A DNA stretch of 64,000 bases from an uncultured Verrucomicrobiae bacterium (GTDB taxonomy: Bacteria > Verrucomicrobiota > Verrucomicrobiia > Chthoniobacterales > Chthoniobacteraceae): contig CAVYKI010000010.1 of NCBI GenBank assembly GCA_963769025.1, positions 448,001 to 512,000 on the forward strand, given 5' to 3'. Shown one piece after another: positions 8,083 through 27,888 of this stretch. A program made the translations under genes and the position numbers. The notes under the pieces are model-generated. The model was not told where the DNA came from. It saw only the letters and a program-made list of their open reading frames with translations, and did not search any database. The stretch's first letter is position 1. Every line of letters begins with the position of its first letter.

Positions 8083-10649
8083 TTACGCGAGCGGACCAAT
8101 GCGAAGGAGGCCCATCACGGGTTCGCCGGCGGCGCGGGACGCGGCGAGATCGACCTCGAACTCCGCGACCCAGTCATTCGCCTCGGCGGGATCGATGAGC
8201 ATCTGCTGCACGCGCCAAGTGCGCTGGTCCTCGGACGGCGTGACGTAGGTGTGGCGCACGTTGCGCGCCTCGGGATCGAGGCGGATGCGCTCGTGCTCGA
8301 CGTGGTATGCGTCCAGCGCCTGGCGGAGCCGCTCGGCGGTCCACGGCTCGCCTTCGGCGTCCGCGGATGACGCGATGGACGCGAGCGCCGCTTCGAAATC
8401 GCCGCTGAGCAACGCGCGCAGGAAGGTGAAGATGCGGTTGCGAATCGCGGCGGTGAACGCCTTCGCGTCGCGCGTGATGTCGCGCGCGGCTTCCTCGGCG
8501 CCGGGCGGGCGCACTTCCGGCTGCTCGCCGCGCGGCTGGTAATTCGGGTCGCGCATTTTCTCCCACTCCTCGAGCAGGCTGGAATCGATCTGCCGGAGCA
8601 TCGTGCGCGAGGTAGAGTTCCATCTCGCGCAACGGCGTCGTTCTTCGCCGCGTCGGGCACGGTTTGCGCGAGCACTTTGTGGACGCTGGAGAGATGCCGC
8701 AGCAGCAGCCCTTCGGCGCGCTGGAGTTCGTAGACCTTGATGTAATCCGCGAAGGAGCGGAACTCCTCGAACATCTCCCGCGCGATGGATTTCGGGCGGA
8801 TGTTTTCCTGCCCGACCCACGGATGCCGCGCGGCGAAGGCATTGAACGTCGAGTAGATGAAATCGCGGTTCGGCTTCGGGTATTCGAGCTTCTCCAGCTC
8901 CTCCATGCGCTGGTTGTATTCGATGCCCTGCATCTTCATCTCGGCGATCGCCTGGCCCTTCACCTTGTCGAGTTGCTTGCGCAGGATGACGTCCGGATCT
9001 TCGAGGATGGATTCGACCAGCGTGAGCACGCACGAGCGCGTAGTCCGGCGCCTGCGGGTCCATGAGCGGGAGCGTGTCGTGGACGTAGAGCGAGAGCGTC
9101 TGGTTCATCGAAAAATCGTCCTGCAGCGCGACGTTCACGCGCACCTTCGCGCCCTCGGTCGGTCTGCGGGATGAACTCGATGATCTTCGCGCTCGACGCA
9201 GCGCGCGGAAGAGCTGCCAGCCGCGCTTCGGGTCAGCGCCTTCTTCGCCTTCGGCGTTTCGTGGCAGCGCGCGATGAGCTCGCGCATCGCGCGGCAGCCG
9301 TCGCCCGGGCGGCTGAGCACATTGAGCAGCATGCCGTGCGTCACCTGAAACTGGCTCGTCAGCCGCTCCGGCGGCGCGGCGATCAGGCGCGCAAAGGTCT
9401 GCTTGTCCCAGTTCACGAAGTTCCGCTCCGGCGGTTTGCGCTTCACGAATTTCTTCCCGCCGCCCGCCTGCTTTTGCTCGAGCTGCAGATTCTCGATCAC
9501 ATGCTCCGGCGCCTGCGCCACCACCCAGCCGACATCGTCGAAACCCTTCCGTCCCGCGCGCCCGCTGATCTGGTGAAAGTCGCGCGCGCTCAGGATGCCC
9601 GTCTTCTGCCCGCTGAATTTGCAGAGCTGCGTGAAGAGCACGGTGCGGATCGGCACGTTGATGCCGACGCCGAGCGTGTCCGTGCCGCAGATCACCTTGA
9701 GCAGCCCGCGCTGCGCGAGTTGCTCGACGAGCACGCGATATTTCGGCAGCAGCCCGGCGTGATGCAGGCCGATGCCGTGGCGCAGCCATTTCTTGATCTC
9801 CGGCCCGTACGGACTGCGTGAACTTGAAGCCCTCCAGCGCCTGCGCGATCGCCGCCTTCTCCTCGCGCGTGCAGACGTTCGTGCTCATGAAATCCTGCGC
9901 GCTCTGCGCCGCCTCGGTCTGCGTGAAATGGACGACATAGACCGGCGCCTTTCCCGCCGGCGACGCAGCGCTCTCGAGCGTCTGCGCCAGCGGCGTCTCC
10001 GCGTAGGAAAACTCCAGCGGCACCGGCCGATCCGTCGACGCGACGGTCACGGTCTCGCGCCCGTTCAGCCGCGTCAGTTCCTCCTCGAAAAACGCCGTGT
10101 CGCCGAGCGTCGCCGACATCAGCAGAAACCGCGTCTGCGGCAGCGTGAGCAGCGGCACCTGCCAGGCCACGCCGCGCTCGCGATCCGCGTAGTAGTGGAA
10201 CTCGTCCATGATCACGTCGTCGCACATTCGCGTCGCGCGCCTTCGCGCAGCGCGATGTTCGCGAGGATTTCCGCGGTGCAGCAGAGGATCGGCGCGTCGC
10301 GATTCACCGACGCGTCGCCCGTGCTCAGCCCGACATTCTCCGGCCCGAACTCGCGGCAGAGCGCGAGCCATTTCTCGTTCACCAGCGCCTTGATCGGGCA
10401 GGTGTAAACCGAGCGCCGCCCCTGCGCCAGGCTCTTGAAATGCAGCGCCGTCGCGACCAGCGATTTGCCCGAGCCGGTCGGCGTGTTGAGGATGACGTTC
10501 TTCTCCGTCGAACAGCTCCAGGATCGCCTCCTCCTGCGCGGGATAAAGCTCCAGCCGCTTCGCCGAACGTAATCCAGAAACCGCCCGAGCAGCGCGTCAT
10601 TCCCGGTGTGCCCGTCTTTGGGAATCGCGTCGTAGAGCGTCATGGGCAT
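8083..10649 (-). CDS. DEAD/DEAH-box (Ski2-like) helicase with DUF3516-type C-terminus; multiple frameshifts
   Basis: [47 protein letters not shown]. Confidence 0.9.
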
Positions 10650-10854
10650 CCGGCGGACGGTGATGTGCCGCGCAATTTCCCGCAACACGCTTCTCGCGAT
10701 GGCGTGCGTCCGGCGGCGGCGGCGCATCTTGACACTCGTCGCGGCGCTTTGTCAGCGTCGCCCCGATGAATCTCCCGGCCACCACGGCCATTTTCCGCAG
10801 AATCATTCGCGGGGTGGCCCGCACCGAAACGCTCCGTCACCGGCGCGCGGCCTG

Positions 10855-12405
10855 ATGCTGTTCAGCTCCTGGCAGTTCATCTTCGTCTTCCTGCCGCTCG
10901 CGGTGGCGGGCTTCTTCGCGATCCCGGCGCGGGCGCAGGTCGCGCGGAAATGGTGGCTGCTGCTCGTGTCGCTGTTTTTCTACGGCTACTGGAAGGTCGA
11001 GTACGTGCCGCTGCTGCTGTTCTCCATCGGGTTCAACTACGCGGTGGCCGAGGGCATCATCGGGTGGCACGGCCGCCCGCGGCGCGGTGGTTCATGACGG
11101 CGGGCGTCGCGATCAATCTCCTGCTGCTCGGCTACTACAAATACACGAACTTCATCCTCGACGCGCTCGGGCGCGTGGGCGGGCCGGAGATTCATCGGTT
11201 CGACATCATCCTGCCGCTGGCCATCTCGTTCTTCACGTTCACGCAGATCGGCTACATCGTGGACGTCTATCGCGACCAGAAGCTGCATTACCGACTGCTC
11301 GACTACTCGGTGTTCGTCGTCTTTTTCCCGCACCTCATCGCGGGGCCCATCGTGCGGCACTGGGAGATCATCCCGCAGTTCGCCGAGAAGCAGCTCAAGG
11401 CAAACCGCGAGGACATGGGCGCGGGCATCGCGATGTTCCTGCTCGGGCTCTTCAAAAAGGTGCTGCTCGCGGATCCGGCGGCGCACTTCGCCGACACGGT
11501 CTATGGCGCGGCGGAAGCGGGGACGGCCATCACGTGGTTCGACGGCTGGCTCGGCACGCTCGCGCTACGCGATGCAGATCTACTTCGATTTCTCCGGCTA
11601 CTCGGACATGGCGATCGGGCTCGCGCGGATGTTCGGCATGAAGTTCCCGCGCAATTTCGACTCCCCCTACAAGGCCGGCAGCATCATCGAATTCTGGCGG
11701 CGCTGGCACATCACGCTGTCGCGCTTCCTGCGCGACTACCTCTACTTTCCGCTCGGCGGCAACCGCTGCGGGAAAACGCGGCACCTCGTGAACATCATGA
11801 TCACCATGGTCGTCGGCGGGCTGTGGCACGGCGCGGGATGGACCTTCCTCGTGTGGGGCGCGCTGCACGGCACATACATCGTCATCGCGCACCTGTGGCG
11901 GAATTTCCACACGGCGCGCGGCTGGCGTTTTGCCGCGCACTGGAGCTACCGCGGCGCATGCGTGGTCGTGACGTTCATCGCGGTGCTGTATGCGTGGGTG
12001 TTCTTCCGCGCGAAGACGCTGCCGGAGGCCGGGCGCGTCGTCGCGGCGATGGCCGGCATGAACGGCTTCACGATTCCCAAAGCCGTGAACGATCCGAAGC
12101 GGCAGCCCGGGCCGATGCTCGAGACGATGGGCGCGCGCTTCGTGGATCAGAGCCTCGGGGACAAGTTCTACAAGCCGGGCATGCGCTGGATGGCCGCGCT
12201 GCTGCTCATCGTTTTCCTGTTGCCCAATACGCAGCAGCTCCTCCGCGGAACCGATCCCGACGCTCGGAGCCGGTCGAGCGCCCGTGGCGATGGCAGCTCG
12301 GGCTCAACGCGGTCACCGGCCTCGCTCCTCGGCGTGCTGCTGTTCGTCGTCATCTGCAGCTACTTTGTCGCGCGGCCGAGCCCGTTCATCTATTTCAACT
12401 TCTGA
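10855..12405 (+). CDS. MBOAT family O-acyltransferase (AlgI/DltB-like); frameshifted
   Basis: MLFSS, LPLAISFFTF, FFPHLIAGPI, QIYFDFSGYSDMA, FWRRWHITLS, GGLWHGAGW (catalytic His), FIYFNF end. Confidence 0.92.
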
Positions 12406-12411
12406 TCCGCC

Positions 12412-13418
12412 GTGAAAGTCCGCCGCTCCTTTTTCATCGCGCTGCCCCTCGGGCTGCTGCTGTCCGCGGCGATCTATTTCGGCCTGTTTCTCCTCCAGCT
12501 CGGCGTGCCGACGGCAAAGTGGGCATGGCTCCACGAAATCATCGTGGCCAAGCGCAAGCTCGCCGAATCCATCACCCAACCGAAGCTGCTCATCGTCGCC
12601 GGATCGTCCGCGCTCTACGGCATCAGCGCGGAGGAAATCGAGCGCCAGACCGGATTCCCGCGGTCAACTTCGGCACGAACGCCGCGCTCGGCCCGGACTA
12701 CATCCTGCACATGACGCGCAAGGTCGTCCGCCCCGGCGACACCGTGCTGCTCGCGTTCGAGTACGAGCAGTATCTCTTCGGCAATCTCACCGGCGAGACC
12801 ACGGACGAGCTGTTCATCGACTACATCCTCGGCCACGACCGCGAATACGTCCGCAGCCTCAGCTTCCACACGCAGTTCAAGCTCGCCCTGCTCACCTCCA
12901 CCGACCGCCTCTGGATGGGTGCCCGCGCCGTTTTCCAGAAGCCGGTGCAGAGCGAGGCCACCGCGGCCTTCATCCACGGGATGCTCGAAGCCATCAACAG
13001 CCACGGCGACCAGACCAACGCCGTGCCGGAACGGCGCCCTGCGGAGGCCGCGATGCGCTCGATGGCCACCTTCATCCCCCGGTACGGCTTTCCGCCATCG
13101 GTGCCGGGCTTCCCGCCGATCCGGGAATTCGCCGCGTGGGCAAAGGCCAACAACATCCGCGTCCTAGCCACCTTTCCCAACACCACGCATCGCCCCGAGT
13201 ACGACCTGCCCGAAGGCACGCGGATGCCCGGGCAGTTCCGCGCCTACTACGAAGCCATGGGCGTCCCCGTCATCGGCGAACTCTCCGAGGCCATGCTCCC
13301 CGAGGATCAGATGTTCGACTCCTTCTACCACCCGATGCGTTCCGCCGCCCTCGAACGCACCCGCCGCCTGCTCCCCCACCTTGCCCCGTATCTCAAGTCC
13401 CAGCCGGGCGCGCGTTGA
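12412..13418 (+). CDS. Periplasmic SGNH-like partner of the MBOAT protein (AlgJ/AlgX/DltD-like); frameshift about 12660
   Basis: N-terminal TM helix, AGSSALYG, VNFGTNA, FDSFYH; starts 6 nt after the MBOAT gene. Confidence 0.65.
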
Positions 13419-15003: not shown

Positions 15004-16104
15004 ATGTCCGAAGCGCTCCCACAAAAGTCATTTGCCGAATTGCTCGGGGAAGAAGCGCGGAAATCGAACCTCGCGGCCCGGGAAGTCAGCTTTCCCGCAG
15101 GGCAGATGATTTTTGGAGCGGGCGAATTGGGCGACGGCCTGTACGTGATCGACGAAGGCATCGTCGAGATTGCCACCGCGATGCCGGACCGGCAGTCGCG
15201 GGTTCTTTCCACGCTGGGGACCGGGGCGTTCTTCGGCGAGATGTCTGTGATCGACGACCTGCCGCGCTCGGCCAACGCGAAGGCGCTGACGGCCACCCGC
15301 GCACGATTCTTTCCACGCGAAGAAGTCTGGCGCCTGGTCGCCCAATCACCGCCGCTCCTGATCGCGCTGATGCGGGAAGTGATCGGTCGGATGAGGCGCG
15401 CGGAGCAGCGCGCCATGCAGGAGGCGTTGGAGGCCGCGCGGCTTTCGGTCGTGGGCCGCTTTGCGCAGTCCATCGTGCATGATTTGAAGAATCCGCTGAA
15501 CACGATCGGGCTCGGCACGGAGCTCGCATTCTCGGATCATTCGACCCCCGAGATACGCAAGGAAGCGGGGCTCCTCGTGCGAAAGCAGGTGGACCGGCTG
15601 GCGGGGATGATTCACGAAGTGCTCGAGTTCACGCGTGGGACGACACGGTCGCTGGATCTGGTCCCGGTGGATTTCCGGGAGTTCATCGCGAGCGCCGTCG
15701 AGGAACTCCGCCCGGAGGCGGAGGCGCGGGCCGTGAAGCTGGAGCTTGCGAACGAACCGCCCGAAGTGCCCGCGCTGATCGATCGTGTGCGGCTCATGCA
15801 CGTCATCCACAATCTGGCGAACAACGCGATGGATGTGATGCCTTCGGGCGGGAAAATCCTGTTTCAGTTCCGGCTGGAGGACGGGGGCGTCGTCACGGAA
15901 ATGGAAGACACAGGGCCCGGCATCGCGCCGGAGGTTGCGAACCACCTCTTCGAGCCGTTTGTCACGCACGGGAAGTCCCACGGGACCGGGCTCGGCCTTT
16001 CCATCTGCAAGCGCATCGTCGAGGACCACGGCGGCAAGATCGCGGCGATCAGCCAGCCAGGGCGCGGCGCGAAATTTTCATTCTCGCTGCGGCGGCAGTG
16101 CTGA
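15004..16104 (+). CDS. Cytoplasmic histidine kinase with N-terminal cyclic-nucleotide-binding domain
   Basis: cNMP cassette FFGEMSVIDDLPRSA; HisKA HDLKNPL; HATPase NLANNA, DTGPGI, GTGLGL; no TM segment. Confidence 0.9.
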   Translation: MSEALPQKSFAELLGEEARKSNLAAREVSFPAGQMIFGAGELGDGLYVIDEGIVEIATAMPDRQSRVLSTLGTGAFFGEMSVIDDLPRSANAKALTATRARFFPREEVWRLVAQSPPLLIALMREVIGRMRRAEQRAMQEALEAARLSVVGRFAQSIVHDLKNPLNTIGLGTELAFSDHSTPEIRKEAGLLVRKQVDRLAGMIHEVLEFTRGTTRSLDLVPVDFREFIASAVEELRPEAEARAVKLELANEPPEVPALIDRVRLMHVIHNLANNAMDVMPSGGKILFQFRLEDGGVVTEMEDTGPGIAPEVANHLFEPFVTHGKSHGTGLGLSICKRIVEDHGGKIAAISQPGRGAKFSFSLRRQC

Positions 16105-16166
16105 GGCTTCAAGCCGCCGGCCGATCCTGCGCCTTTCGCCAGCACATCCGAGCCGCGGTGTTTCCG

Positions 16167-17057
16167 CTAGAAGCGGTAGCTCGTGCCGATTCCGATTCCG
16201 AAAGTCTGATAGGACGCGCGCGAGACGTTCGAGTCGTTATCGACCAAGTAGGTCGTCAAATTGGCCGTCCAGCGATCGCTGATCTGATACACGAAATTCA
16301 AGCCTGCCAGGTTGCGCGAATCGTGCCGGGCCACACTGGTGTAGTTGCTGTACTGAAAGGCATAGAAGAGCTGGCAGTAGAGGGCGAATCCGAGCCGCTG
16401 CGTCACACCCACCGTGACCCGGTGCGCGTTGCGATCATCCGCGACGGGAAAGCTGAAGTAGTTCGAGAAATTGTAGCCGATGGAGAAAACGGTCTGGTCC
16501 CGGTTGAAAGTCCACTCCTTCTGGATGCCTGCCGAAATTGGCAGGGCTTCGGTGAGCTGATCGCCGGTGCGGGCGCTGGCGTACCAATACGGCTCGATGC
16601 CGGCGTAAAAACGCACCGCGTCCTTTGACGGCTGATAATTCAGAAGCGCCGACCCGCTGAAGCCCCAGAAGCTGGACTCATCGAACTTGGTATAGACGAA
16701 GGCGTCGGATCGCGCACCGAACGAGAGCGAGAAGCCATGGTCGAGCGGCTCGTCAAACGACACCCCAATGCTCGGACGAAGCAGGAAATCGCCGCTCCCG
16801 TGATTGCCTGAATACAGCGCGTTGGAGACATACTCCGTGCTGACCGACGCGGTCAGGCGTAACCGCTCGAGGAGCGGTTTGTCCGCGAGCGGACGGATGT
16901 CCCCCAAATCGTCGATGACGGCCGGCGGCTGTTGCGGCACGCCTCTCGCCGCTTCCACGATCTGCGTGACCTGAACCACGCGGTCCGACTGCGAAAAGGC
17001 GTTTTGAACGAAGCCAGTCGCTACGAGTAGCGCGAAGAGAACTCGATGGAGTTTCAA
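16167..17057 (-). CDS. Outer-membrane beta-barrel protein (DUF560/BBP2-like)
   Basis: Signal peptide, alternating aromatic/hydrophobic strands, C-terminal DSNVSRASYQTFGIGIGTSYRF ending in Phe. Confidence 0.7.
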   Translation of the reverse strand: MKLHRVLFALLVATGFVQNAFSQSDRVVQVTQIVEAARGVPQQPPAVIDDLGDIRPLADKPLLERLRLTASVSTEYVSNALYSGNHGSGDFLLRPSIGVSFDEPLDHGFSLSFGARSDAFVYTKFDESSFWGFSGSALLNYQPSKDAVRFYAGIEPYWYASARTGDQLTEALPISAGIQKEWTFNRDQTVFSIGYNFSNYFSFPVADDRNAHRVTVGVTQRLGFALYCQLFYAFQYSNYTSVARHDSRNLAGLNFVYQISDRWTANLTTYLVDNDSNVSRASYQTFGIGIGTSYRF

Positions 17058-17087
17058 GGGATGATGGGTGGGTGGGTTGATCGGCCG

Positions 17088-17934
17088 TTACGGATTGCCG
17101 CCGGGACGCCGGGATCCGGGATTGCCGCCGGGATTCACGGGATTGCCGTTCATGGTCGTTGGTTGCACCGTCGTTCGTCGACGCGGTCGGCGTGACCGGC
17201 TCCGTGCTGACCGGTTGCGGAATCGCCGTTGGCTGGCGCGACGAATTCACCAGGGCGGAATCGACTGCGTTGGCATCATGCAAACCCGGAAAAAGGGATG
17301 CGAGCCAGGTCCGTTTGATCTGGATTCCCGTATCTTCGGGAAGCGGTCCCATGGCGTACAGCTTTCCCCGCGTTGCCTCCTTCGGGTCGAACTTGAAGAG
17401 CGTTGCCTTGCCGTTGGCGACCCTGATCGCCCATCCGGCGGGAATCTTGTACTTCTTTCCGGCGACCGTGACCGTGGTCGAACCTCGCAGTATGGCCAGC
17501 ATGTCGGGCGTGAGCTTGCCGACCGTACCGGTGATTGCTGCGGTGAGCGCCGGTGTCTTGATGGTCCGGACTCCCTGGTTTGGCGCGGCGTAGAAAAGCA
17601 TGTCGCCCTTGTCCAGCGAGAGCGCGCGGGTTCTTCCCTCGAAGGAAAAGACCGAGTTCTGCCCGACGCGGACGAGGCTGCTGTCCTTGAATTGCAGTTC
17701 CGCACGCGAGTCGCTGCCGGTCTGGACAATCTGCGTCGCCTTCACCGAATCCGAAACGACCGCGGCACGCCGTGCCGACACCTGCCCTGCCTTGATTTCC
17801 GCCACGGCCACCTTGTTCTGGACCCGGGTGATCGTTGCGGAATCCAACGGGGGCTGTGCCATGGCCACGCTCAAGCTCGCGAGGATGAACACAGCGCCCC
17901 AGGGAAGTCCGGCGGAGAAGGTGTGCCGTTTCAT
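17088..17934 (-). CDS. Secreted FecR-domain protein 1 with Pro/Gly/Asn-rich tail; frameshift about 17160
   Basis: Signal peptide; QTGSDSRAELQFKDSSLVRVGQNS...KTPALTAAITGT. The corrected tail NGNPVNPGGNPGSRRPGGNP ends at TAA 17088-17090. Confidence 0.8.
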
Positions 17935-18074
17935 GCCGTTTCCTTGCCCGGCGCGGCGGTGCCAGTCAAGCCCTGCGCACTGGCTGGCAGTCCCCGCAAT
18001 TGAACGCGGAATGCCTCGCAAGCCGCCCCCCGCCATCGCCACAGGCTCTCGATTCCGGATGGCTCCGCCCGCCG

Positions 18075-18933
18075 CTATCGCAACCCCAAGAATATCCCGA
18101 TCGAATCGAAGATTCCGACCCGTCCGTCAGGAAGGACTCCGGTGATTGGCCTGTTTGTCCCGACGAGGGATCGGTTGATAAGACGGCTGCTCTCAGAATC
18201 AAATCCGACACCGGCGGCGTCATACAGACGAATGACGGCGTAGTCCGCGTCCGCCTCCTTGAGCCATGGGCTGAATTTCGCCATCTTGGCCTCGGCCTCG
18301 TCCGGGAGCGCCGCCCACTCCAGGAGCTTTCTCCGCGCCCGGGACCACAGTTCATCTTCGCCATCGGATTGATAAATGACCAGCGTGCCAAACACCCACT
18401 TCGCGGCGTTGTGATCGGTGCCGGCCTCGATCACCGCCTTCTTGTCCACCCCATCCTGCCTATAGAAGAGCGGGATTTTCCCGTCGAGGGCGAGGACACC
18501 ATCGAGCGAAAAGAGCACCACAGTGCCCGTGATCGCCGCGGTCAGGGCCGCGGTCTTGAGTTTTACCCCGGACTTGCCCGGCGGCAGATAAAAGAGCATG
18601 TCGCCCTTTTCGAGGGAGAGCGTGCGCGAGTGGGCTTCGAAGGAAAAAATGGAGTTTGGCCCGACACGGATGAGGCTCCCGTCGTTGAACTCCAGTTCCG
18701 CCCGCGCAGCGCTCGCGGTCTGGAGGAAGTGGTTTGCCCGGATCACCTCGGAGACGGTGGCCGGATGCGCACCCGTGGCCTGGCCCGCCTTGATCTCCGC
18801 CACGATGGCTTTGTTTTCCACCCGCTTCACCGTCGCGGTGTCGAATGGCGGCGCGCGCGTGAGCGGGGATGAGACCCGCGACAAGAAACGCTACGATCCG
18901 CCAAGGCACACCGGGAACTCTGCGGGGGTTCAT
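18075..18933 (-). CDS. Secreted FecR-domain protein 2; frameshift about 18880
   Basis: MNPRRVPGVPWRIVAFLVAGLIPAHARA signal in one frame; QTASAARAELEFNDGSLIRVGPNS...KTAALTAAITGT in the next. Confidence 0.8.
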
Positions 18934-19037
18934 GGCGTCGTAGGTCTGCCCCCGCGCGTGCCGAGTCAAGCCGGAAAAGGGTCGCCAAATCCGAGGTGTT
19001 CGCCCGATACTCCCGCGGTGCGAGGTCCTGCCACCCC

Positions 19038-21156
19038 ATGAATTTCCTGAGCCGCCATCGACGCGCCTTTCTGGTCGTGGTTTGCGTCGTGTGCACAGGC
19101 ATCATCGCGGCGGCGCACTGGACGAATTTCGAACCGCTCGTGCGCATGGAATCGAGCGCCCGTGATTTTCTGACGCGGCACGGCGACCGCTCACCCACTC
19201 GGCCGGAGCTCGTCTATCTTGCGATCGATGCGGCGACCATCTCCCTCGACAATGCGTTCGACGACGAGATCAACGCGTCCCCTGCCCTGCGGTCGATGAA
19301 GGCCTCGGGCTGGCCGTGGTCCGCGCGACGTCTATCCGATGATCATCGAACGGCTGCTGAATGCCGGCGCGCGAGTCATCATATTCGACATGCTGTTCCC
19401 GACCGAGCGGGAGGGCGACGCGGCGTTCCGCGCGGCGCTGGATCGCTACGGCGACAAGGTCGTGATCGGCGCGAACTTCGTCGAGACCCCGCTCACGAAG
19501 ACGCTCACCGTCCCGGCTCCGTCGCTGATCCCGTCGGAGGATCCGCTCGATCCGCGGGTGGGCTACGTGAATTTCTGGGCGGAAATCGACGGCACCGTGC
19601 GCACCGCCAACTACCGGATCACGGAAGACGAGGTGAATGGCTGGCGGCCGAGGCCCGATTCCAGGGTGCTCTATTCGCTCGGCGGCCGCGCGCTGTCCAA
19701 GCTCGGGCACGAGGATCTGATCCCCCGCGAGGGCCGCTGCATCCGCTTTGCGATGGACGATCCGAATTCGCTGACCGCATTTCCGCCTCGTTCGTTGTGG
19801 CAAATTTTTGCCGCCCCGACATGGGAGGCTCATCCGTACAACAGCGGCGAGTTTTTCCGGGACAAGATCGTGCTCATCGGCCCCGAGGGCGACTGGGCCC
19901 ACGATGTCCTGCGCACCCCGCTGGGCCTGATCCCCGGCCCGGCCCTGCACCTGCACGCGATCAATGCGGCGCTCAACCGGGACTTTGTGCGCGAGCCCTC
20001 GCGGACGGGAGATCTTGCCGGCATCCTCATCGCGGGGCTCGTCGCTTGGGGGCTGAGCATGCTGATCCGGCAGCCGTTTTTCCGCTTCCTCGCCTTCATC
20101 GGCGGAAGCGTCGCCTATTACTTCGTGGCGCAGGGCGTCTTCGACTTGAAATCCGGCGCGGTCATCCTCGGCCTCATGCCGCCGCTGCTGGCCGCGAACG
20201 GCTCGGGACTCGTGTGGCTCGTCTGCGAACAGGTGATCGACCGCCTCGAAAAGGCGCGCACGCGCCGGACGCTCGAACGCTACGTGTCCAAGGATCTCGT
20301 GAAGGAGATCCTCGACAACCCCGCGAGCATCCTGAACGCGCTCGGCGGCACGCGCCGGTCCGTGGCGATCCTCTTCAGCGACCTGCGCAATTTTACGACG
20401 ATGACCGAGGAGGCCGACTCACGGCAGCTCGTCGCGCAGCTCAACGAATACTTCACCGCGATGGTGGAGCGCATCTTCCACAGCAAGGGCACGCTCGATA
20501 AGTTCATCGGCGACGCGATCATGGCCGTCTGGGGCGAGGTGCAGAGCGAGGGACCCGTGCGGGACGTCGAGCGCGCGGTCACCGCCGCGCTGGAGATGCA
20601 GGTGGCGCTCACGGCCTTGAACCGCAGTTGGGAGCAGCGCGGCATCCGGACATTCAAGATGGGAATCGGCATCAACTACGGCCCGGTCATCGTCGGCAAT
20701 ATCGGCGCGACCGGCGCGACGGAGAAAATGGAGCTGACCGTGATCGGCGATCCGGTGAACCTCGCCTCGCGCCTCGAAGGGCTCACCAAGCAGTTTGGCG
20801 TCGAGCTGCTGCTCGGCGAAGGCGCGGCCGATCTGGTGACGGACCTTTTTCACCTCCAGTTTGTGGATCAGGTCAGGGTGAAGGGAAAAACCCAGCCCAT
20901 CCGCATGTACACCGTCCTCGGTCCGCAACGCACGCCGCTCCCGGAAAACACGCTCAGCTACGCCGCCTACTACGCGGAGGGCGTGAGCCGTTACCAGATG
21001 GCGCACTTCGCGCCCGCCATCGAGTCGTTCAGCCGCTGTCTCAAGTGCATCCCCGACGATCCGCTCGCGTCGATGTACCTGAGCCGTTGCAGCGACCTCC
21101 GGGATCACCCGCCCGGGCCGGAGTGGGATGGCGTTTTTGTGGCGACCAAAAAATGA
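19038..21156 (+). CDS. CHASE2-domain class III adenylate cyclase with C-terminal TPR-like tail; frameshift about 19325
   Basis: N-terminal TM, CHASE2 (AID, WPW, GARVIIFD, DGTVR, KIVLIG, TP.G.IPG..LH), 3 TM, LFSDLRNFT, DKFIGDAIMA, TVIGDPVNLASRLE (K/T ATP specificity), WDGV tail. Confidence 0.92.
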
Positions 21157-21213
21157 ACCTGCGCCCCAAAGGCCCGGGCCGCGTTCGCGTCCGTCCCGCC
21201 TGAAAGCGGAGCG

Positions 21214-22081
21214 CTACGCCGCGCCGCCCGCCTTGCTTTCCACCATTCGCCGCAGCCGTGCGATGTTGCGCTCGACCCGCTGCACGTACTCGTTCGGCCC
21301 ATCCGGGTAGGGCCGGTTCAGAAAAGTGTACAGCCGTTCAAAATCGCTCTCGATTTTCGTCCGGACGTATCCGTCCCAAAATGCCGGCGTCTTCCGCAGC
21401 AGATCGTCCAGGCTCGTGAAGGGAGATTTTCTTCGCCGCCGCCGGCCCGTCGAACCGCGCGGCTTCCGCGAATTCCTCGTAAAGCACCGGCAGCTTGTCC
21501 ACGTAATCGGGGGCGGCCATCTGCCCGAGCAGATCCGCGGTGCCGAGCACATAGCCCATCATCCGCTCCTCGGCGTTTTGGAAAGGAATCGCCTGGAGAT
21601 CCACATTCACGCCGGTGCACCGGATCATGTGCTGGATGGCCGTCGTGTCCGCCTCCGTCCAGCCCTTGCGGGAAAGAAACTCCGTCGCAAACACCGCGCT
21701 CCGGGAGACGTGCGTCAGCGTGTATTTTGCCCCGGTCCCTTCCGTGTCATCCTTCTTTTTAAGATAGCCCGTGTCGTGGAAAAGGATCGCCAGAAGTCCC
21801 AGCTGAAATCCTTTTTCCGAGAGCGCCGGGCGCGCCTTCGCCTCGTGGCGCCCGTGCAGCAGACGCGCGAGGCAAAGCGTGCCCTGCAGCGTGTGCTCGA
21901 AATCGTGGTAGAGCGCATCGATGGCATGGTAGCCGTCGTATTCGCCGGAAAAAAACTGCCCCGCCCACTCGAACGCCTGCCGGACGAAACCCCGATCGCC
22001 CTCCGGGAACATGCTCCGGTAAATCGACGCGACACACTCCTCCGCTGCGCGGGGCACTTTGGTGTCCACCTCGTCAAACAT
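21214..22081 (-). CDS. HD-superfamily metal-dependent phosphohydrolase (possible cyclic-nucleotide phosphodiesterase); frameshift about 21425
   Basis: YHDFEH...LFHDTG...H...TADLLGQ metal ligands. Confidence 0.8.
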
Positions 22082-22145: not shown

Positions 22146-23094
22146 CTACGACGCGAGAACGGCTTCCGGCGCGACCGAAGTGAGATCGCCTGAAGGCGCG
22201 CGGATGATGCGCACGTGTTCCCCGACCGGCGCCCAGACGGACGGATCGGTCGGGCCGAAAAGCAACGTGGACGGGATGCCGGTGGCGGCGGCGATGTGCG
22301 AGATGCCGGTGTCGTGCCCGAAGTAGGCGCTGCACCCCGCGAGCAGCGCCGAGAGCGTGGGAAGCGGGAGATTCCGCGCGACGAGCGGCGCGTGCACGGA
22401 AAGCGAGCGGGCGAGCGTGTCGAGTGCGCTGTCGTCGGCCTCGCCGCCGATGAGGAGGAGCCGCGCGCCGCCCGATGCGATGCGGTCGCCGAGGCGCTGC
22501 CAGTTTCCCGCGGGCCAGTTTTTCCTCGGGCTGCCGGAGCCGGGGTGGAGCGCGACGAGCGGGCGCGCATCCTTTTCCGCGGCCTGCTCGGCGAGCCACG
22601 CAGCGGCGGCAGTTTTTCGTCGGTTCGTTCGGGAAAAGTCGCGTGGCATTTTCGTCGAGAAAGACGGCCATCCGTTCGAGGCCGCGCGCGAGCTGGACGC
22701 TGGCGTGCTGCTGGTCGGTGATCTTTTCGTGGACGCCGAGAAAGTTGCGCACGCCCGCGCGTTCGAGGTTCGCGGCGAAGATGCCGTCGGGATCGAAGAG
22801 CCAGCTCACGACCTGCTGGAAGCCGGCAAAGTACGCGCAGAGGTCGGGCGCGAGCTGCCCGGCGCGCGCGAAGAACGCGGCCATCGGGCCGTATTCGATA
22901 TTCCGCACGGCGTCGGCGTAAGTCTTCCCGGGCTCGGGGCCGCCATGCAGCGCGAGTTCGGCGATGTGGCGGTAGCCGAGGATCTCGAGGTGGCAGTGCG
23001 GCAGCGTCTGCCGGAGCATCCGGATCGCGGGAAGCGTAAGGACGAAGTCGCCAATCGCTCCGCCGCGGATGACGAGGATGCGCGGCTTGCTCAC
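22146..23094 (-). CDS. Glycosyltransferase family 9 (heptosyltransferase-like); frameshift about 22620
   Basis: ILVIRGGAIGDFVLTLP, HPGSGSPRKNWP, GHDTGISHIAAA, LFGPTDP. Confidence 0.9.
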
Positions 23095-23315
23095 CGGTTA
23101 CTTCCGCTCTGGATCTCTTCCACCTCGCGCTGGATCGCCTCGATCTACCGCTTGGATTCTTCGAGCGTCCTCATCGCCTGGCGGTGCCTTGCGTCTTCCC
23201 TTTCCATATTCTGCCTAAACAGGAAGACGCCGACACCCACGAGGATTGTAACGAGGAGTTTGGTGATGCTGGCAAGCTTGCCGGGCGATGGGCGGGGCGT
23301 TGCGGCGGGCTGCAT
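23091..23315 (-). CDS. Small single-TM protein with coiled-coil tail, interrupted by an in-frame TAG at 23145-23147
   Basis: Hand translation MQPAATPRPSPGKLASITKLLVTILVGVGVFLFRQNMEREDARHRQAMRTLEESKR*IEAIQREVEEIQSGSNR*; the final TGA overlaps the GT9 GTG start. Confidence 0.5.
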
Positions 23316-23322
23316 GGCAGGG

Positions 23323-24837
23323 TCACATCAGGTTCGCGGCGACCTCGGCCATCTCGCTGCGCTCGCCCTTGAAGAGATTGATGTGCGCCATCCACGGCTG
23401 GCCTTGCAGGCGGTTGCGCGCATAGACGAGGCCGTTCGTGTGGGCGTCCACGTACGGATTGTCGATCTGCCCGAGGTCGCCGATGAGGATCATCTTGCTG
23501 CCTTTGCCCATGCGGGTGATGAGCGTCTTCGCCTCGTGCGGCGTGAGCTGCTGCGCCTCGTCCACGATGAAGACGGCGTTCGGGATGCTGCGTCCGCGGA
23601 TGTGCGTGATGGCCTCGATCTCGAGCCGCCCGCTCGCGGTGAGATGTTCCCACGGGCGCATCGGTTTTGTCGGCCCGCTTTGCTGCGAAGGGTTCTGCTG
23701 GTGCTGCGGCTGGCGGTCGTCGGCCTTGCGCTGGCTCTGGCGCTTGTTCTCGAATTGCTCCGGCCGGCGCGGGCGCGTGAGCAGGAGTTCCAGCGCGTCG
23801 AATGCGGGCTGCACCCACGGCTGCATTTTCTCCTCCAGCTTTCCGGGGAGGAAGCCGATGTCGCGTCCCGTGGGCATGATCACGCGGGTGATGAGCATTT
23901 TCTCAAACACGCCGACCTGCACCTGCTCCAGCGCCGCGCCGACGGTGAGCAGCGTCTTCCCGGTGCCCGCCTTTCCATAGACGGTCACGAGCGTGATGGC
24001 CGGATCGTAGAGCGCGTCGAGGAGGAAGCGCTGGCCGAGATTCAGCGCCGCGAGCGTGCGGCCCCCGCGGATGGTGATGCGGTCGCGGCGCAGCTTGTGA
24101 AGTTCGCCTTCGCCGACGTGCCGCGCGGGGATGGCGTGCGTGGGCTCCTCCTCGTTGCGGAGCAGGAGGTAGTGGTTCGGGTGAAAATCCTTCGCCTCGG
24201 GGATGACGATCGTCTCCTGGCTCGCGTACGCCTGCACGGTGTACGGCGCCACGTCGAGCGTCTCATATTCCTCCTCGCTGCGGCGCATCGTGAGGCGGAT
24301 GTCCACGTCCTCCACGCGGTCCGTGCGGTAGTCCTGCGCCTCCATGCCGAGCGCGCGGGCCTTCAGCATCATGTTGAGGTCCTTCGTCACGAGGATGACG
24401 GAGCCCTTTTCCGCGTCCGCGACACCGCACGCGGCGGCGAGGATGCGGTTGTCCGGCAGCGTGAGGTCGGCGAAGAGATCGCGCAGCGCCTGGAAGCGCG
24501 GCGAGTCGCTCACGAGCTGCCAGCCCTCGCCGTCGAAGCGCGCGACGGGATTGATGCAGACGCGCAGCGTGCCGCCGTTCTCCAGCTTCACGCCCGCCTG
24601 CATGTCGCTGGGGTTCATGAAGCGCTCGCTCAGCCGCCGGTGCACCTCGCGGGCGTTCGCGCCGCGCGTGGAGCTTTCGCTCTTGAACCGATCCAGCTCC
24701 TCGAAGACCTCGACGGGGATCCAGACGAAGTTCTCCTTGAACTGGAAGGGCGAGCCCGGGTCGTGGATGAGGACGTTGGTGTCGAGGATGTAGTGCTTCG
24801 GGGTGGGGCGTGGCGCAGCGGCTGGCTTCGGTGGCAT
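23323..24837 (-). CDS. PIN-PhoH family ATPase (PhoH2/YlaK-like)
   Basis: PIN YILDTNVLIHDP, EELD, DNRIL, TKDLNM; P-loop GKAGTGKT, IRGRS, DEAQ, GDLGQID. Confidence 0.92.
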   Translation of the reverse strand: MPPKPAAAPRPTPKHYILDTNVLIHDPGSPFQFKENFVWIPVEVFEELDRFKSESSTRGANAREVHRRLSERFMNPSDMQAGVKLENGGTLRVCINPVARFDGEGWQLVSDSPRFQALRDLFADLTLPDNRILAAACGVADAEKGSVILVTKDLNMMLKARALGMEAQDYRTDRVEDVDIRLTMRRSEEEYETLDVAPYTVQAYASQETIVIPEAKDFHPNHYLLLRNEEEPTHAIPARHVGEGELHKLRRDRITIRGGRTLAALNLGQRFLLDALYDPAITLVTVYGKAGTGKTLLTVGAALEQVQVGVFEKMLITRVIMPTGRDIGFLPGKLEEKMQPWVQPAFDALELLLTRPRRPEQFENKRQSQRKADDRQPQHQQNPSQQSGPTKPMRPWEHLTASGRLEIEAITHIRGRSIPNAVFIVDEAQQLTPHEAKTLITRMGKGSKMILIGDLGQIDNPYVDAHTNGLVYARNRLQGQPWMAHINLFKGERSEMAEVAANLM

Positions 24838-24961
24838 GGAGATTTTGGTGCCCGCATCCGCAGGCGAGGCGACCGTGAACCCGGACCCCCCGCAGGCGCA
24901 AGAAGGGAAACGCGGACAAATGCGGGTGCCGGACGTGTCTGGAGACGGGCGCGGATTATTT

Positions 24962-25073
24962 AACGCAGAGACGCAGAGACGCAGAGGACAAAAAACGGGA
25001 TACAGGTATGCGCCGTGTGATCACTTTGATGGTGTCGTGCTTCGCTTCTCCGCGTCTCTGCGTCTCTGCGTTT
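24962..25073. repeat. Octamer-based inverted-repeat element, copy 1
   Basis: (ACGCAGAG)x3 at 24963-24986 and CTCCGCGT(CTCTGCGT)x2 at 25048-25071. Confidence 0.85.
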
Positions 25074-25132
25074 CAAAACTGCGGCGCGCCCGGCGTAGCA
25101 TCGCGGCTAAGATTTGCACCGCGCGCGCGGCT

Positions 25133-25161
25133 TTGACTTCCCGACTCCAAATCCCTACAGC
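25133..25161 (+). promoter_or_regulatory. sigma70-like promoter TTGACT-N17-TACAGC
   Basis: 17-bp spacing, 9 nt before ATG 25171; same -10 hexamer as at 5843. Confidence 0.55.
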
Positions 25162-25170
25162 CGCACCTCC

Positions 25171-26428
25171 ATGAAACTCCGCGCCCTCATCCCTCTCGCC
25201 GCACTCACCCTTTCCGCCACCGCCGCAGACTGGCCGCAATACCGCGGGCCGAATGGCGACGGCTCCACGACCGAGTCGCTGCCCGCGCAGTGGCCCGCCG
25301 CGCCGAAGGTGCTCTGGAAGGTCCCCGGCGGAACCGGCTTCGGATCGTTCGTGGTGAGCGGCGCGTGGTGTTTCTCCATCGAGGGAAAAGGCGCGGATGA
25401 AGTGCTCGTCGCGCGCGACGCGGCGACAGGGAAGGAAAAGTGGACCGCCAATCTCGGCCCCGCGAAATACCAGGGCGGCGGCGACGCCGGCACGAATGAC
25501 AACAAGGGCGGCGACGGCCCGCGCAGCACGCCGACGCTCGCCGGCAAGGTCATCGTCGCGATGCACAGCGACCTCGTGCTTCACGCGTTCGACGCCGTGA
25601 CCGGCAAGCCGCTCTGGAAGCGCGACCTCGTCGCGGAGCACGCCGGCAAAAACATTTCCTGGTCGAACGCCGCGAGCCCGCTCTTCGAAGGCGGCCTCAT
25701 CTACGTCGCCGGCGGCGGCGCGGGGCAGACGTATCTCGCCCTCGACCCGCTGAAGGGCACCGTGCTCGCGAAAACCGGCGACGACACGATCACGCACGCC
25801 ACGCCCACCGCGGCGACGATCCACGGCCAGCGGCAGATCATCTTCTTCATGAAGAGCGGCCTCACTTCCCTCGACCCGAAGACGCTGAAGCAGCTCTGGC
25901 ACGCGGATTTTCCGTTTAACGTCAGCACCGCCGCGAGCCCGGTCGTCGCGGGTGACTACGTGTATTGCAGCGCCGGCTACGGCACAGGCGCGGGCGGCTT
26001 CAAGATCACCAAGTCCGGCAACGACTGGAAGGCCGAGCAGGTCATGCGCGTGCCCGCAAAAGCCGCTCGCCAACCACTGGAGCACGCCCGTGCATTTCGG
26101 CGGACATCTCTACGGCATGTTTCAGTTCAAGGAATACGGCAAGGGCCCGATCAAGGCCGTGGCGCTGCCGGACGGTGAGATCAAATGGGAGCAGCCCGGC
26201 TTCGGCCCCGGCAACCTGATCCTCACCGCAGGCGGCAATCTGCTCGCGCTGAACGACACCGGCGAACTCGTCGGCATCGCCGCGCGGCCCGACGCCTACA
26301 AGGAAATCGGCCGCTTCAAGGCCGTGAGCGGCAAATGCTGGTCCACGCCCGTGCTGAGCAACGGCCGCGTCTTCGTCCGCTCCACCACGGAAACCGCCTG
26401 CATCCAGCTCGGCACACCGGGCAAGTAG
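25171..26428 (+). CDS. PQQ-binding-like beta-propeller protein (BamB-like, PVC family); frameshift about 26060
   Basis: Signal peptide then ADWPQYRGP, TGKEKW, GPRSTP, ASP repeats, WSTPVLSNGRVFVRS. Confidence 0.88.
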
Positions 26429-26466
26429 CCGCTGGCGGCGGCGTGCACACCCGGTAGAGTAACGCC

Positions 26467-27888
26467 ATGACCCCCGATCTCCCCCATCTCACCCGTCGCA
26501 CCTTCCTCGGCAACGCCGCGCGTGGCGTCGGCGCGGTGGCGCTCGGGTCGCTGCTGAATCCCGCTTCGCTTTTCGCCGCGCAGAAATGGCGCGGCATTTT
26601 GGCGGCGCCGCATTTTCCGCCGAAGGCGAAGCGCGTGATCTGGCTCACGATGGCGGGCGGGCCGTCGCATCTGGAGACGTTCGACCACAAGCCGAAGCTC
26701 GCCGAGATGCACGGCAAGCCGATGCCGGAGAGCATCACCAAGGGGCAGCAGATCGCGCAGTTGCAGGGCAAGCAGCTGAACTGCTTCGGCCCGCAGTGGG
26801 CGTTCAAGAAGTTCGGCCAGTGCGGCGCGGAAATCTGCGAGCTGTTCCCGCACATCGGCTCGGTCGCGGACGACATCTGCTTCATCCGCTCGATGACGAC
26901 CGACGCGATCAACCACGATCCCGCGCACATGCTTCATGAACACCGGCTCGACCGATCCCCGGCCGCCCGAGCATGGGCTCGTGGCTCACGTACGGCCTCG
27001 GCAGCGAGGCGGAGGAATTGCCCGGCTTCGTCGTGCTCACCTCGCTCGGCAAGGGCGGGCAGAACCAGCCCATCGCCGCGCGGCAGTGGAGCGCGGGATT
27101 TCTGCCGAGCCGCTTCCAGGGCGTCGCAGCTGCGCGAGCAAAGGCGATCCCGTCCTTTACCTCACGCAATCCCGCCCGGCGTCTCGCGCGAGCAGCAGGG
27201 CGACGTCATCGACGCCGTCAACAAGCTCAACGCGCAGCTTCGACGCCGTCGTGGACGATCCGGAAATCGCCACGCGCATCGCGCAGTACGAGATGGCGTT
27301 CAAGATGCAGGCCAGCGTGCCCGAACTGATGGACATGGCGAAGGAACCGCAGAGCGTCCTCGACCTCTACGGCTGCAAGCCCGGCGACGGCTCCTTCGCC
27401 GCAACTGCCTGCTCGCGCGCCGGCTCGCCGAGCGCGGCGTGCGCTTCATCCAGCTCTACCACAAGGACTGGGACCACCACGGCGGCGTGAAGGACGGCAT
27501 CAAGCTCAAGGCCGAGGAAGTGGACCGCGCGTGCATGGCGCTCATCACCGACCTCAAGCAGCGCGGCATGTTCGACGACACGCTCGTCGTCTGGGCCGGC
27601 GAATTCGGCCGCACGCCGATGTCGCAGGGCGGCAGCGGACGCGACCACCACATCCTCGGCTTCACGACCTGGATGGCCGGCGGCGGGATCAAAGGCGGCA
27701 CGCAATGCGGCGAGACCGACGAATTCGGCTACAAGGCCGTGAAGGACGTCGTCCACGTCCACGACATGCACGCCACGATGCTGCACCAGCTCGGCATCGA
27801 CCACACGAAGCTCGTCTTCCGCACCCAAGGCCGCGACTACCGGCTCACGGATGTGTTCGGGAAAGTGGTGAAGGGGATTCTGGCGTAA
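26467..27888 (+). CDS. DUF1501 domain protein (second copy); frameshifts in 26930-27400
   Basis: TRRTFLG Tat motif, [47 protein letters not shown]. Confidence 0.9.

Follow-up and report, generated by a model that had tools for sequence, protein, structure and literature searches.

A barrel-FecR-CHASE2 cyclase module in a Verrucomicrobiae bacterium, with a candidate cAMP eraser and a putative cAMP-sensing kinase at its flanks

Do the writer, a candidate eraser and a candidate reader of cyclic AMP (cAMP) that lie side by side in one genome form a dedicated circuit, or did the last two come to stand beside a module of a known kind? The question is raised by six adjacent genes in a 64,000-nucleotide stretch of DNA from an uncultured Verrucomicrobiae bacterium (GCA_963769025.1, contig CAVYKI010000010.1, positions 448,001 to 512,000; the whole stretch is called the window). 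They encode a histidine kinase with a cyclic nucleoside monophosphate (cNMP)-binding domain, an outer-membrane beta-barrel, two exported FecR-domain proteins, a membrane CHASE2 class III adenylate cyclase and an HD-domain protein. An initial annotation had read them as a self-contained trans-envelope cAMP circuit. We favor another account, to which we assign a probability of roughly 0.55: this is a cAMP module of a known kind; in one lineage a cAMP eraser was added to it, and a cAMP-sensing kinase came to lie beside it. The HD protein would be a good candidate for the eraser and the kinase a plausible, weakly tied reader, both activities being predicted from sequences and structural models.

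The barrel-FecR-cyclase core

The cyclase aligned with CyaB of Pseudomonas aeruginosa (3r5g) with an E value of 2e-31. In this alignment the Lys (DKFIGD) and Thr (LTVIGD) that had been read as ATP-specifying are present, and both metal Asp and the Asn/Arg pair are retained; we take these to be the metal-binding, ATP-selecting and transition-state residues. CHASE2, the membrane segments and the catalytic domain lie in one chain when an assembly indel is allowed for, with PF05226 and PF00211 over their cut-offs. The cyclase matched its intact orthologue in the closest syntenic genome (G001) at 70%, in two frames. It is the sole CHASE2 match of the window genome (G000), where two other cyclase-like domains score far lower. 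Another membrane protein of that genome (G000:C3:44419-46080) is cyclase-like and has altered catalytic motifs; its C-terminal tail resembles that of the window cyclase, and it is possibly an inactive partner.

Homologues of the cyclase occur in 33 of 41 genomes of the genus and order. A FecR gene adjoins 16 and a barrel gene 15 of the 40 fetched cyclase loci; at the ten closest cyclases these figures are eight and seven, as the initial annotation had led us to expect. The neighborhoods were called with home-made hidden Markov models seeded from the window genus, so distant FecR and barrel genes can escape, and many contigs were shorter than the requested flank. The barrel-FecR-CHASE2 cyclase core is thus conserved and already known in kind. 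In G001 five of the genes stand in the same order, while the kinase gene lies elsewhere. Two genomes (G001 and G045; L041 and L289) carry a second module of barrel, long FecR and CHASE2 proteins that has no cyclase-domain match and is followed by a histidine kinase gene.

An alignment of 17 homologues gave the barrel a signal-peptide-like N-terminus and a C-terminal Phe. Its model has 12 strands after a low-confidence N-terminal segment (predicted local distance difference test, pLDDT, 76.9), and its best folds were autotransporter, COG4313 and FapF barrels (Z 17.5-20.3), a likeness that says nothing of function. Signal-peptide-like segments, judged by eye, start both FecR proteins, which matched their G001 orthologues at 66% (FecR1) and 52% (FecR2). 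A tail similar to the PxGxxxxFDxxG end of FecR2 closes the FecR genes beside the HD gene in L008, L063 and L064. Complex prediction for the CHASE2 domain with FecR1, using the intact G001 orthologues, scored 0.48, 0.00 and 0.00 in its runs and so spoke neither for nor against a contact.

Other kinds of barrel were considered and rejected. Slam consists of a TPR region and a 14-stranded barrel; the model is 12-stranded and there was no TPR or Slam Pfam match, so that a Slam or type 11 barrel was set aside. Slam was also not among the listed fold matches, which alone does not exclude it. TonB-dependent signaling of the FecIRA type was discarded as well, given the 12 strands and the lack of a sigma gene among the six; a TonB-dependent receptor beside FecR is 22-stranded.

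All parts of the locus can be assigned to named families, and the arrangement of the core has been published. In the accessible text on Campylobacterota, genes for a CHASE2 adenylate cyclase, a phosphodiesterase, a FecR protein and a TPR protein are clustered and were proposed as one pathway (Mo et al. 2022, PMC9239204). The likeness is a CHASE2 cyclase grouped with a FecR-domain protein and a phosphodiesterase for cAMP; the fourth gene there encodes the TPR protein and that text names no kinase, whereas the window encodes a barrel of 12 strands, a pair of FecR proteins, a candidate eraser of HD fold and a cNMP-binding kinase. In Sinorhizobium meliloti, CHASE2 cyclases depend on a barrel protein of the outer membrane that acts upstream of them, as far as the excerpts of two papers tell (PMC13001267, PMC7529298). 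The NsrA-CyaD1/CyaD2/CyaK-Clr system, as covered in part by the sources, shares with the window a barrel protein, CHASE2 cyclases, cAMP and, in its regulon, a FecR-domain gene. This gene, smc02177, is a Clr target dispensable for signal perception in the excerpted account (PMC5498481). According to the same partial sources the NsrA barrel spans residues 600-1200, whereas that of the window makes up a whole protein of 296 aa and 12 strands; compared by size, a barrel of the NsrA kind was rejected. The output may differ too: it is the CRP-family regulator Clr in S. meliloti, while the window genome, 83% complete, gave no Crp helix-turn-helix match and has a cNMP-binding kinase adjacent to the module. 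In the Burkholderia BiofilmReg operon, an exported FecR-domain protein stands beside a CHASE2 sensor; there, in the portion available, one protein combines CHASE2 and the kinase, and the operon includes a regulator (PMC5192318), whereas in the window CHASE2 is on the cyclase and the kinase is separate and soluble. Literature searches, with subscription journals mostly uncovered, gave no CHASE2-FecR module that includes an HD-fold class I-like eraser or a cNMP-binding histidine kinase, no assay of either family and, as had been anticipated, no description of the arrangement in Verrucomicrobiota.

Gene calls and Pfam matches confirmed the six adjacent genes and their coordinates (table 1), and the strands bore out that the FecR2-FecR1-barrel run is divergent from the cyclase gene. 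The kinase and barrel genes are tail-to-tail with a gap of 62 nt, as are the cyclase and HD genes with a gap of 57 nt. Since both flanks are tail-to-tail with the core, there are four transcription directions and hence no single operon. The promoter scan returned no sites, the divergent intergenic region included, where no sigma-70-like site was found; neither tail-to-tail gap has a terminator-like site. On the outer sides of the locus, a phosphofructokinase gene is divergent from the kinase gene, and a glycosyltransferase-9 gene and a PIN-PhoH gene lie upstream of the HD gene on the same strand.

Table 1. Features of the locus in window coordinates.
Feature	Position	Strand	Remarks
cNMP-HisKA-HATPase kinase	15004..16104	+	Pfam PF00027, PF00512, PF02518; soluble, 366 aa
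Outer-membrane beta-barrel	16167..17057	-	296 aa; weak BBP2_2 match, below cut-off
FecR1, exported FecR-domain protein	about 17088..17934	-	PF04773 E 1.6e-10; Pro/Thr-rich tail
FecR2, exported FecR-domain protein	18075..18933	-	PF04773 E 9.3e-9; tail PxGxxxxFDxxG
Divergent intergenic region FecR2/cyclase	18934..19037		104 nt, from sequence
Membrane CHASE2 class III adenylate cyclase	19038..21156	+	PF05226, PF00211; about 705 aa; helical C-terminal tail
HD protein, Npun_R2479 family (PF28239)	21214..22081	-	288 aa; predicted class I phosphodiesterase-like fold

One-base frameshifts interrupt FecR2 near 18855, the cyclase near 19321 and the HD gene near 21424. The extra bases are missing from the contigs of close relatives in two to three of four public runs, and a test of 130 conserved genes in the window assembly found 39 that match in more than one reading frame. 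The three frameshifts look like assembly errors; because relatives' contigs lack the extra bases, the genes were treated as intact and a pseudogene reading was rejected. A fourth frameshift is probable near the 3' end of FecR1, judging from orthologues only. Genes at 8083-13418 and 22146-27888 are also split between frames, in line with assembly indels: helicase-like, MBOAT acyltransferase, glycosyltransferase 9, PQQ-repeat-like and DUF1501-like, three of these five names being our presumption. The PIN-PhoH gene at 23323-24837 is unbroken.

The HD protein as a candidate eraser

An intact, near-identical database protein (P0004) represents the HD protein of the window. P0004 and its homologues carry the precomputed domain PF28239 (Npun_R2479), a family of at least 4312 database members; our local Pfam copy gave no match. 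With NCBIfam NF045583 the scores were 56-63 bits against a cut-off of 400, below equivalog level, and 63 bits against 400 makes the HD protein a distant subfamily of the Npun_R2479 family. In an alignment of 106 sequences H63, H102, D103 and D183 are invariant and H59 nearly so. All 60 listed Protein Data Bank (PDB) matches of the profile built from these sequences were class I phosphodiesterases (PDEs), the matches being weak (best E 0.004); a search with the single sequence found no PDB relative. The profile search aligned the YHDxxH...HD of the HD protein with the YHNWRH...HD of PDE5, and a later Asp presumably corresponds to that of the class I metal motif.

The structural model (pLDDT 97.7) points the same way. 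Its top 17 structure matches were class I PDEs, with Z 16.3-18.6 over 230-262 residues at a root-mean-square deviation of 3.7-4.5, followed by a generic HD hydrolase (Z 14.2), alarmone hydrolases (Z 9-10) and HD-GYP proteins (Z 8.2-8.7). Helical folds may reach a Z of about 13-14 without kinship, so that rank order and coverage weigh more than the Z value itself. Foldseek concurred on the class I likeness. The closest folds are thus those of PF00233 enzymes (PDE1-11, RhoPDE 5vyd, TcrPDEC1 3v93; Z up to 18.6, 250 residues), which share the YHxxxH...HD metal motif with the HD protein. T231 and F234 are nearly invariant among the 106 sequences, and by motif spacing T231 may occupy the position of the PDEs' purine-reading Gln. 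The name putative cGMP phosphodiesterase is given to Npun_R2479 in the accessible part of one preprint, and the literature searches gave no assay of any protein of the family. Some members are fused to GAF, to GAF and HD_5, or to an N-terminal domain of no known kind (P0141, P0230, P0261, P0263).

The HD gene was found in nine of 30 genus genomes, and in all eight other than the window's a cyclase and/or FecR gene adjoins it, so that the proposed link of HD gene and module holds within the genus. A cyclase lies within 4 kb of it in seven of the eight, and the gene orders vary. In G001 and G045 the HD gene is tail-to-tail with the CHASE2 cyclase; in G003, G010 and G042 it stands between FecR genes at 2-3 kb from that cyclase; G004 and G024 have it immediately after an FHA-cyclase or 3.5 kb away from one; and in G012 it and a FecR gene diverge. 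On a 133-row tree the HD links take four changes. Separate links come from another family, where at L091 an HD gene and the gene of a CHASE2-type cyclase meet tail-to-tail, from a proteobacterial locus with a cyclase about 2.4 kb from the HD gene (L297), and from an HD domain fused to a REC-cyclase (P0169). A class III cyclase was present in 27 of 31 HD-bearing genomes and in 132 of 300 overall; the 31 are kin rather than independent, 23 of them belonging to one family. HD and kinase genes co-occur within the genus; as this reflects kinship, we do not count it in favor of a link.

Other genes recur in these neighborhoods. Small FHA-class III cyclases occur in the genus (L062:6084-7181, L063:3919-4797, L066:8523-9896); G004 and G024 have one close to the HD gene, in G024 amid Ser/Thr kinase-like genes. 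A conserved three-gene block encodes a large cytochrome c with multiple hemes and LVIVD repeats, a protein of 630-780 aa without Pfam match and an FG-GAP/HbpS-like exported protein (L002:12265-19000, L008:13172-16486, L062:8900-18000, L067:2100-11350, L066). It lies 3' of the HD gene or of a short cyclase in G001, G003 and G004, and the cytochrome gene is a few kb from a short cyclase in G014 too; the block may be part of the same regulon. A metallo-beta-lactamase-fold candidate cAMP phosphodiesterase was seen at L008:10011-10844, tail-to-tail with the HD gene of G003, and in the window genome at G000:C9:1035061-1035879.

The kinase and other possible readers

In the kinase, a cNMP domain with a G-E...R cassette is fused to HisKA and HATPase domains. 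The FGE..RSA cassette is intact as had been reported and reads FGEMSVIDDLPRSA, and the phospho-His of the H-box (SIVHDLKNPL) is unbroken. The best PDB relatives of the sensor part were domains of PKG, CRP and the regulatory subunit of PKA. Excluding the window, a cyclase, CHASE2, FecR or barrel gene lies within about 8 kb of the kinase gene at 10 of 45 genome loci, and the same linkage was found at 3 of 60 metagenome loci, many of them on short contigs. We estimate such closeness by chance at 1-2%, for a single-copy gene and 3-5 cyclase genes in a 5 Mb genome. The phylum-wide kinase search, in which 20 of 28 non-self loci were fetched, undercounts because six candidates were scored per genome.

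The links concentrate on one side of the kinase tree, made up of subfamily B and more remote relatives, where 12 of 41 loci are linked. At four loci the subfamily B kinase starts 3-8 nt past the stop of a FecR-family gene (L017, L023, L051, L052; starts from our gene caller), at three the order is cyclase, barrel, FecR, kinase (L053, L258, L261), and at three more the kinase is near cyclases (L189, L190, L193). On a 105-row tree, kinase linkage takes nine changes, six of them forced; the trees were a quick tree and a FastTree, the second of which leaves out L003 for its length. A partner response regulator was found neither adjacent to the kinase in the window nor among the 22 most frequent neighbor clusters of 105 kinase loci, as judged by the sequence starts of the clusters. 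The literature search gave no characterized cAMP-gated bacterial histidine kinase.

The kinases of one family, f23 (L194, L198, L200, L204), have a drifted cassette (GE[IV]G...RSLR or RALQ), and four of five f23 genomes have no class III cyclase match yet retain the kinase and the HD protein. Another ligand or another cyclase class is possible for them.

As for other readers, the Crp helix-turn-helix exceeded its cut-off in 15 of 30 genus genomes, G001 included, and the idea that CRP is missing from this lineage was rejected for this reason. The window genome also encodes an Fe-S protein in which ferredoxin-like modules flank two cNMP-binding domains (G000:C3:175242-177521); in G012 and G042 the kinase gene has a similar double-cNMP gene at a distance of about 4 kb.

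Competing explanations and what the locus may mean

In the mechanism that we propose, the 12-stranded barrel and exported FecR proteins would relay an envelope cue to CHASE2, the periplasmic domain of the cyclase, a step for which synteny and the S. meliloti precedent argue and which has slightly the better of the odds. The cyclase would very probably make cAMP, to judge from its residues. The HD protein would probably be a compact class I-type phosphodiesterase that clears a 3',5'-cyclic nucleotide; its modeled fold and its linkage are in hand, and the substrate is extrapolated from them. The kinase likely binds cAMP, given its cassette. Control of the kinase by this cyclase through cAMP falls a little short of an even bet; the kinase, its activity shifted by cAMP, would then act on a regulator encoded elsewhere, as one of several possible readers and from a position in the window that is not conserved.

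A number of observations weigh against this account. The full six-gene set was found at no other examined locus. Unlike class I PDEs, the HD protein is a stand-alone bacterial protein with 10-16% identity to them; PF00233 did not match P0004, two HD relatives matching it at E 0.002-0.004, under the curated cut-off, and a profile of the HD C-terminal third found no PDE. The HD links of the genus form one clade with a single change (support 89) and may go back to one recruitment; the single clade speaks for retention through rearrangement rather than for eight separate events. Outside the genus the HD gene lies mostly amid housekeeping genes, a cyclase being near it at one of 33 Verrucomicrobiota loci and at one of 20 proteobacterial loci (20 of 22 matches fetched). 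The 80 best GTDB loci comprise two that repeat genus contigs, one with an adjacent FecR gene, two with a cyclase 7-8 kb off and 75 with none. Four genomes of one other family, 98-100% complete, hold the HD protein and the cNMP-binding kinase and have no class III cyclase match. The kinase subfamily of the window is linked at only 2 of 65 loci, one of them the window itself, and a gene that we take from its sequence to be mutL-like adjoins 26 kinase loci instead. Furthermore, five other cNMP-domain proteins are encoded in the window genome, and a second eraser candidate of the metallo-beta-lactamase type occurs in 28 of 30 genus genomes, the window's included.

The flanks fare differently. Linkage in related genomes, which the initial annotation had set as a condition for both, stood for the HD gene (8/8) and for the kinase family at large (10/45), and failed for the window's own kinase subfamily (2/65). 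With the family linked and this subfamily hardly so, the kinase family appears tied to such modules, and where the kinase lies in the window reflects either chance or a new recruitment. Self-containment found no support: cyclase, HD protein and kinase were found together at no other examined locus. A dedicated six-part circuit, with the kinase as the cyclase's output and the HD protein as its private eraser, is improbable in our estimate, even though both flank families recur beside such modules, the window genome has one CHASE2 match and no Crp helix-turn-helix match, and the only other linked locus of the kinase subfamily (L003 of G011) has the kinase directly behind FecR and cyclase genes on the same strand. 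Against such a circuit stand the 63 of 65 subfamily loci where the kinase is unlinked, the four transcription directions, the lack of a partner regulator and the Crp-type domains in half of the genus genomes.

The opposite extreme would make a unit of the barrel-FecR-cyclase core only, with the kinase as a chance neighbor and the HD protein as a housekeeping hydrolase that hitch-hiked once, acting on 2',3'-cNMP, a cyclic dinucleotide or an alarmone or in nucleotide clean-up. The housekeeping neighborhoods beyond the genus, the single clade and the four genomes without a class III cyclase match fit it, and since the window was chosen for adjacency, one further kinase link in 64 is weak. We nevertheless hold it to be unlikely: the HD gene remained beside cyclase or FecR genes while gene orders were reshuffled several times, the link arose anew in another family and in a fused gene, and the modeled fold is nearer to cNMP PDEs than to alarmone hydrolases or HD-GYP proteins. 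The flow might also run from inside out, the barrel and FecR being an export or surface-anchoring pair under cAMP control. The barrel does resemble the 12-stranded barrels of autotransporters and of FapF secretion, relatives have FecR partners as long as 700-1100 aa, and smc02177 of S. meliloti is a Clr target not needed in signal perception, in the partial text (PMC5498481); yet the FecR proteins of the window are short and, in the excerpts cited above, the S. meliloti barrel protein is required upstream of the cyclases (PMC13001267, PMC7529298), which leaves this direction rather unlikely. These alternatives overlap in part with the favored account of a known module with an attached eraser, so that our confidences do not sum to one.

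A wider proposal, tentative and on balance doubtful, is that class I PDEs have a widespread bacterial branch in the Npun_R2479-like HD proteins, maybe working without the purine-reading Gln, and that the cNMP-HisKA proteins of Verrucomicrobiota are cAMP-gated kinases that joined barrel-FecR-CHASE2 modules several times. If true, the window would hold the writer, eraser and reader of a route from envelope to cAMP to phosphorelay that has no need of CRP. Class I PDEs are described as eukaryotic in the portion of the literature at hand (PMC4858519), and here a stand-alone bacterial family of predicted class I fold, with at least 4312 members, would be added to them. The Npun_R2479 family now has a gene-context link to cyclases. 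The kinase subfamily that lies in-operon behind barrel and FecR genes is a good first target in the search for a cAMP-gated histidine kinase, and the locus yields two candidates for erasing and reading the cAMP signals of CHASE2 modules, the HD protein and the cNMP-binding kinase.

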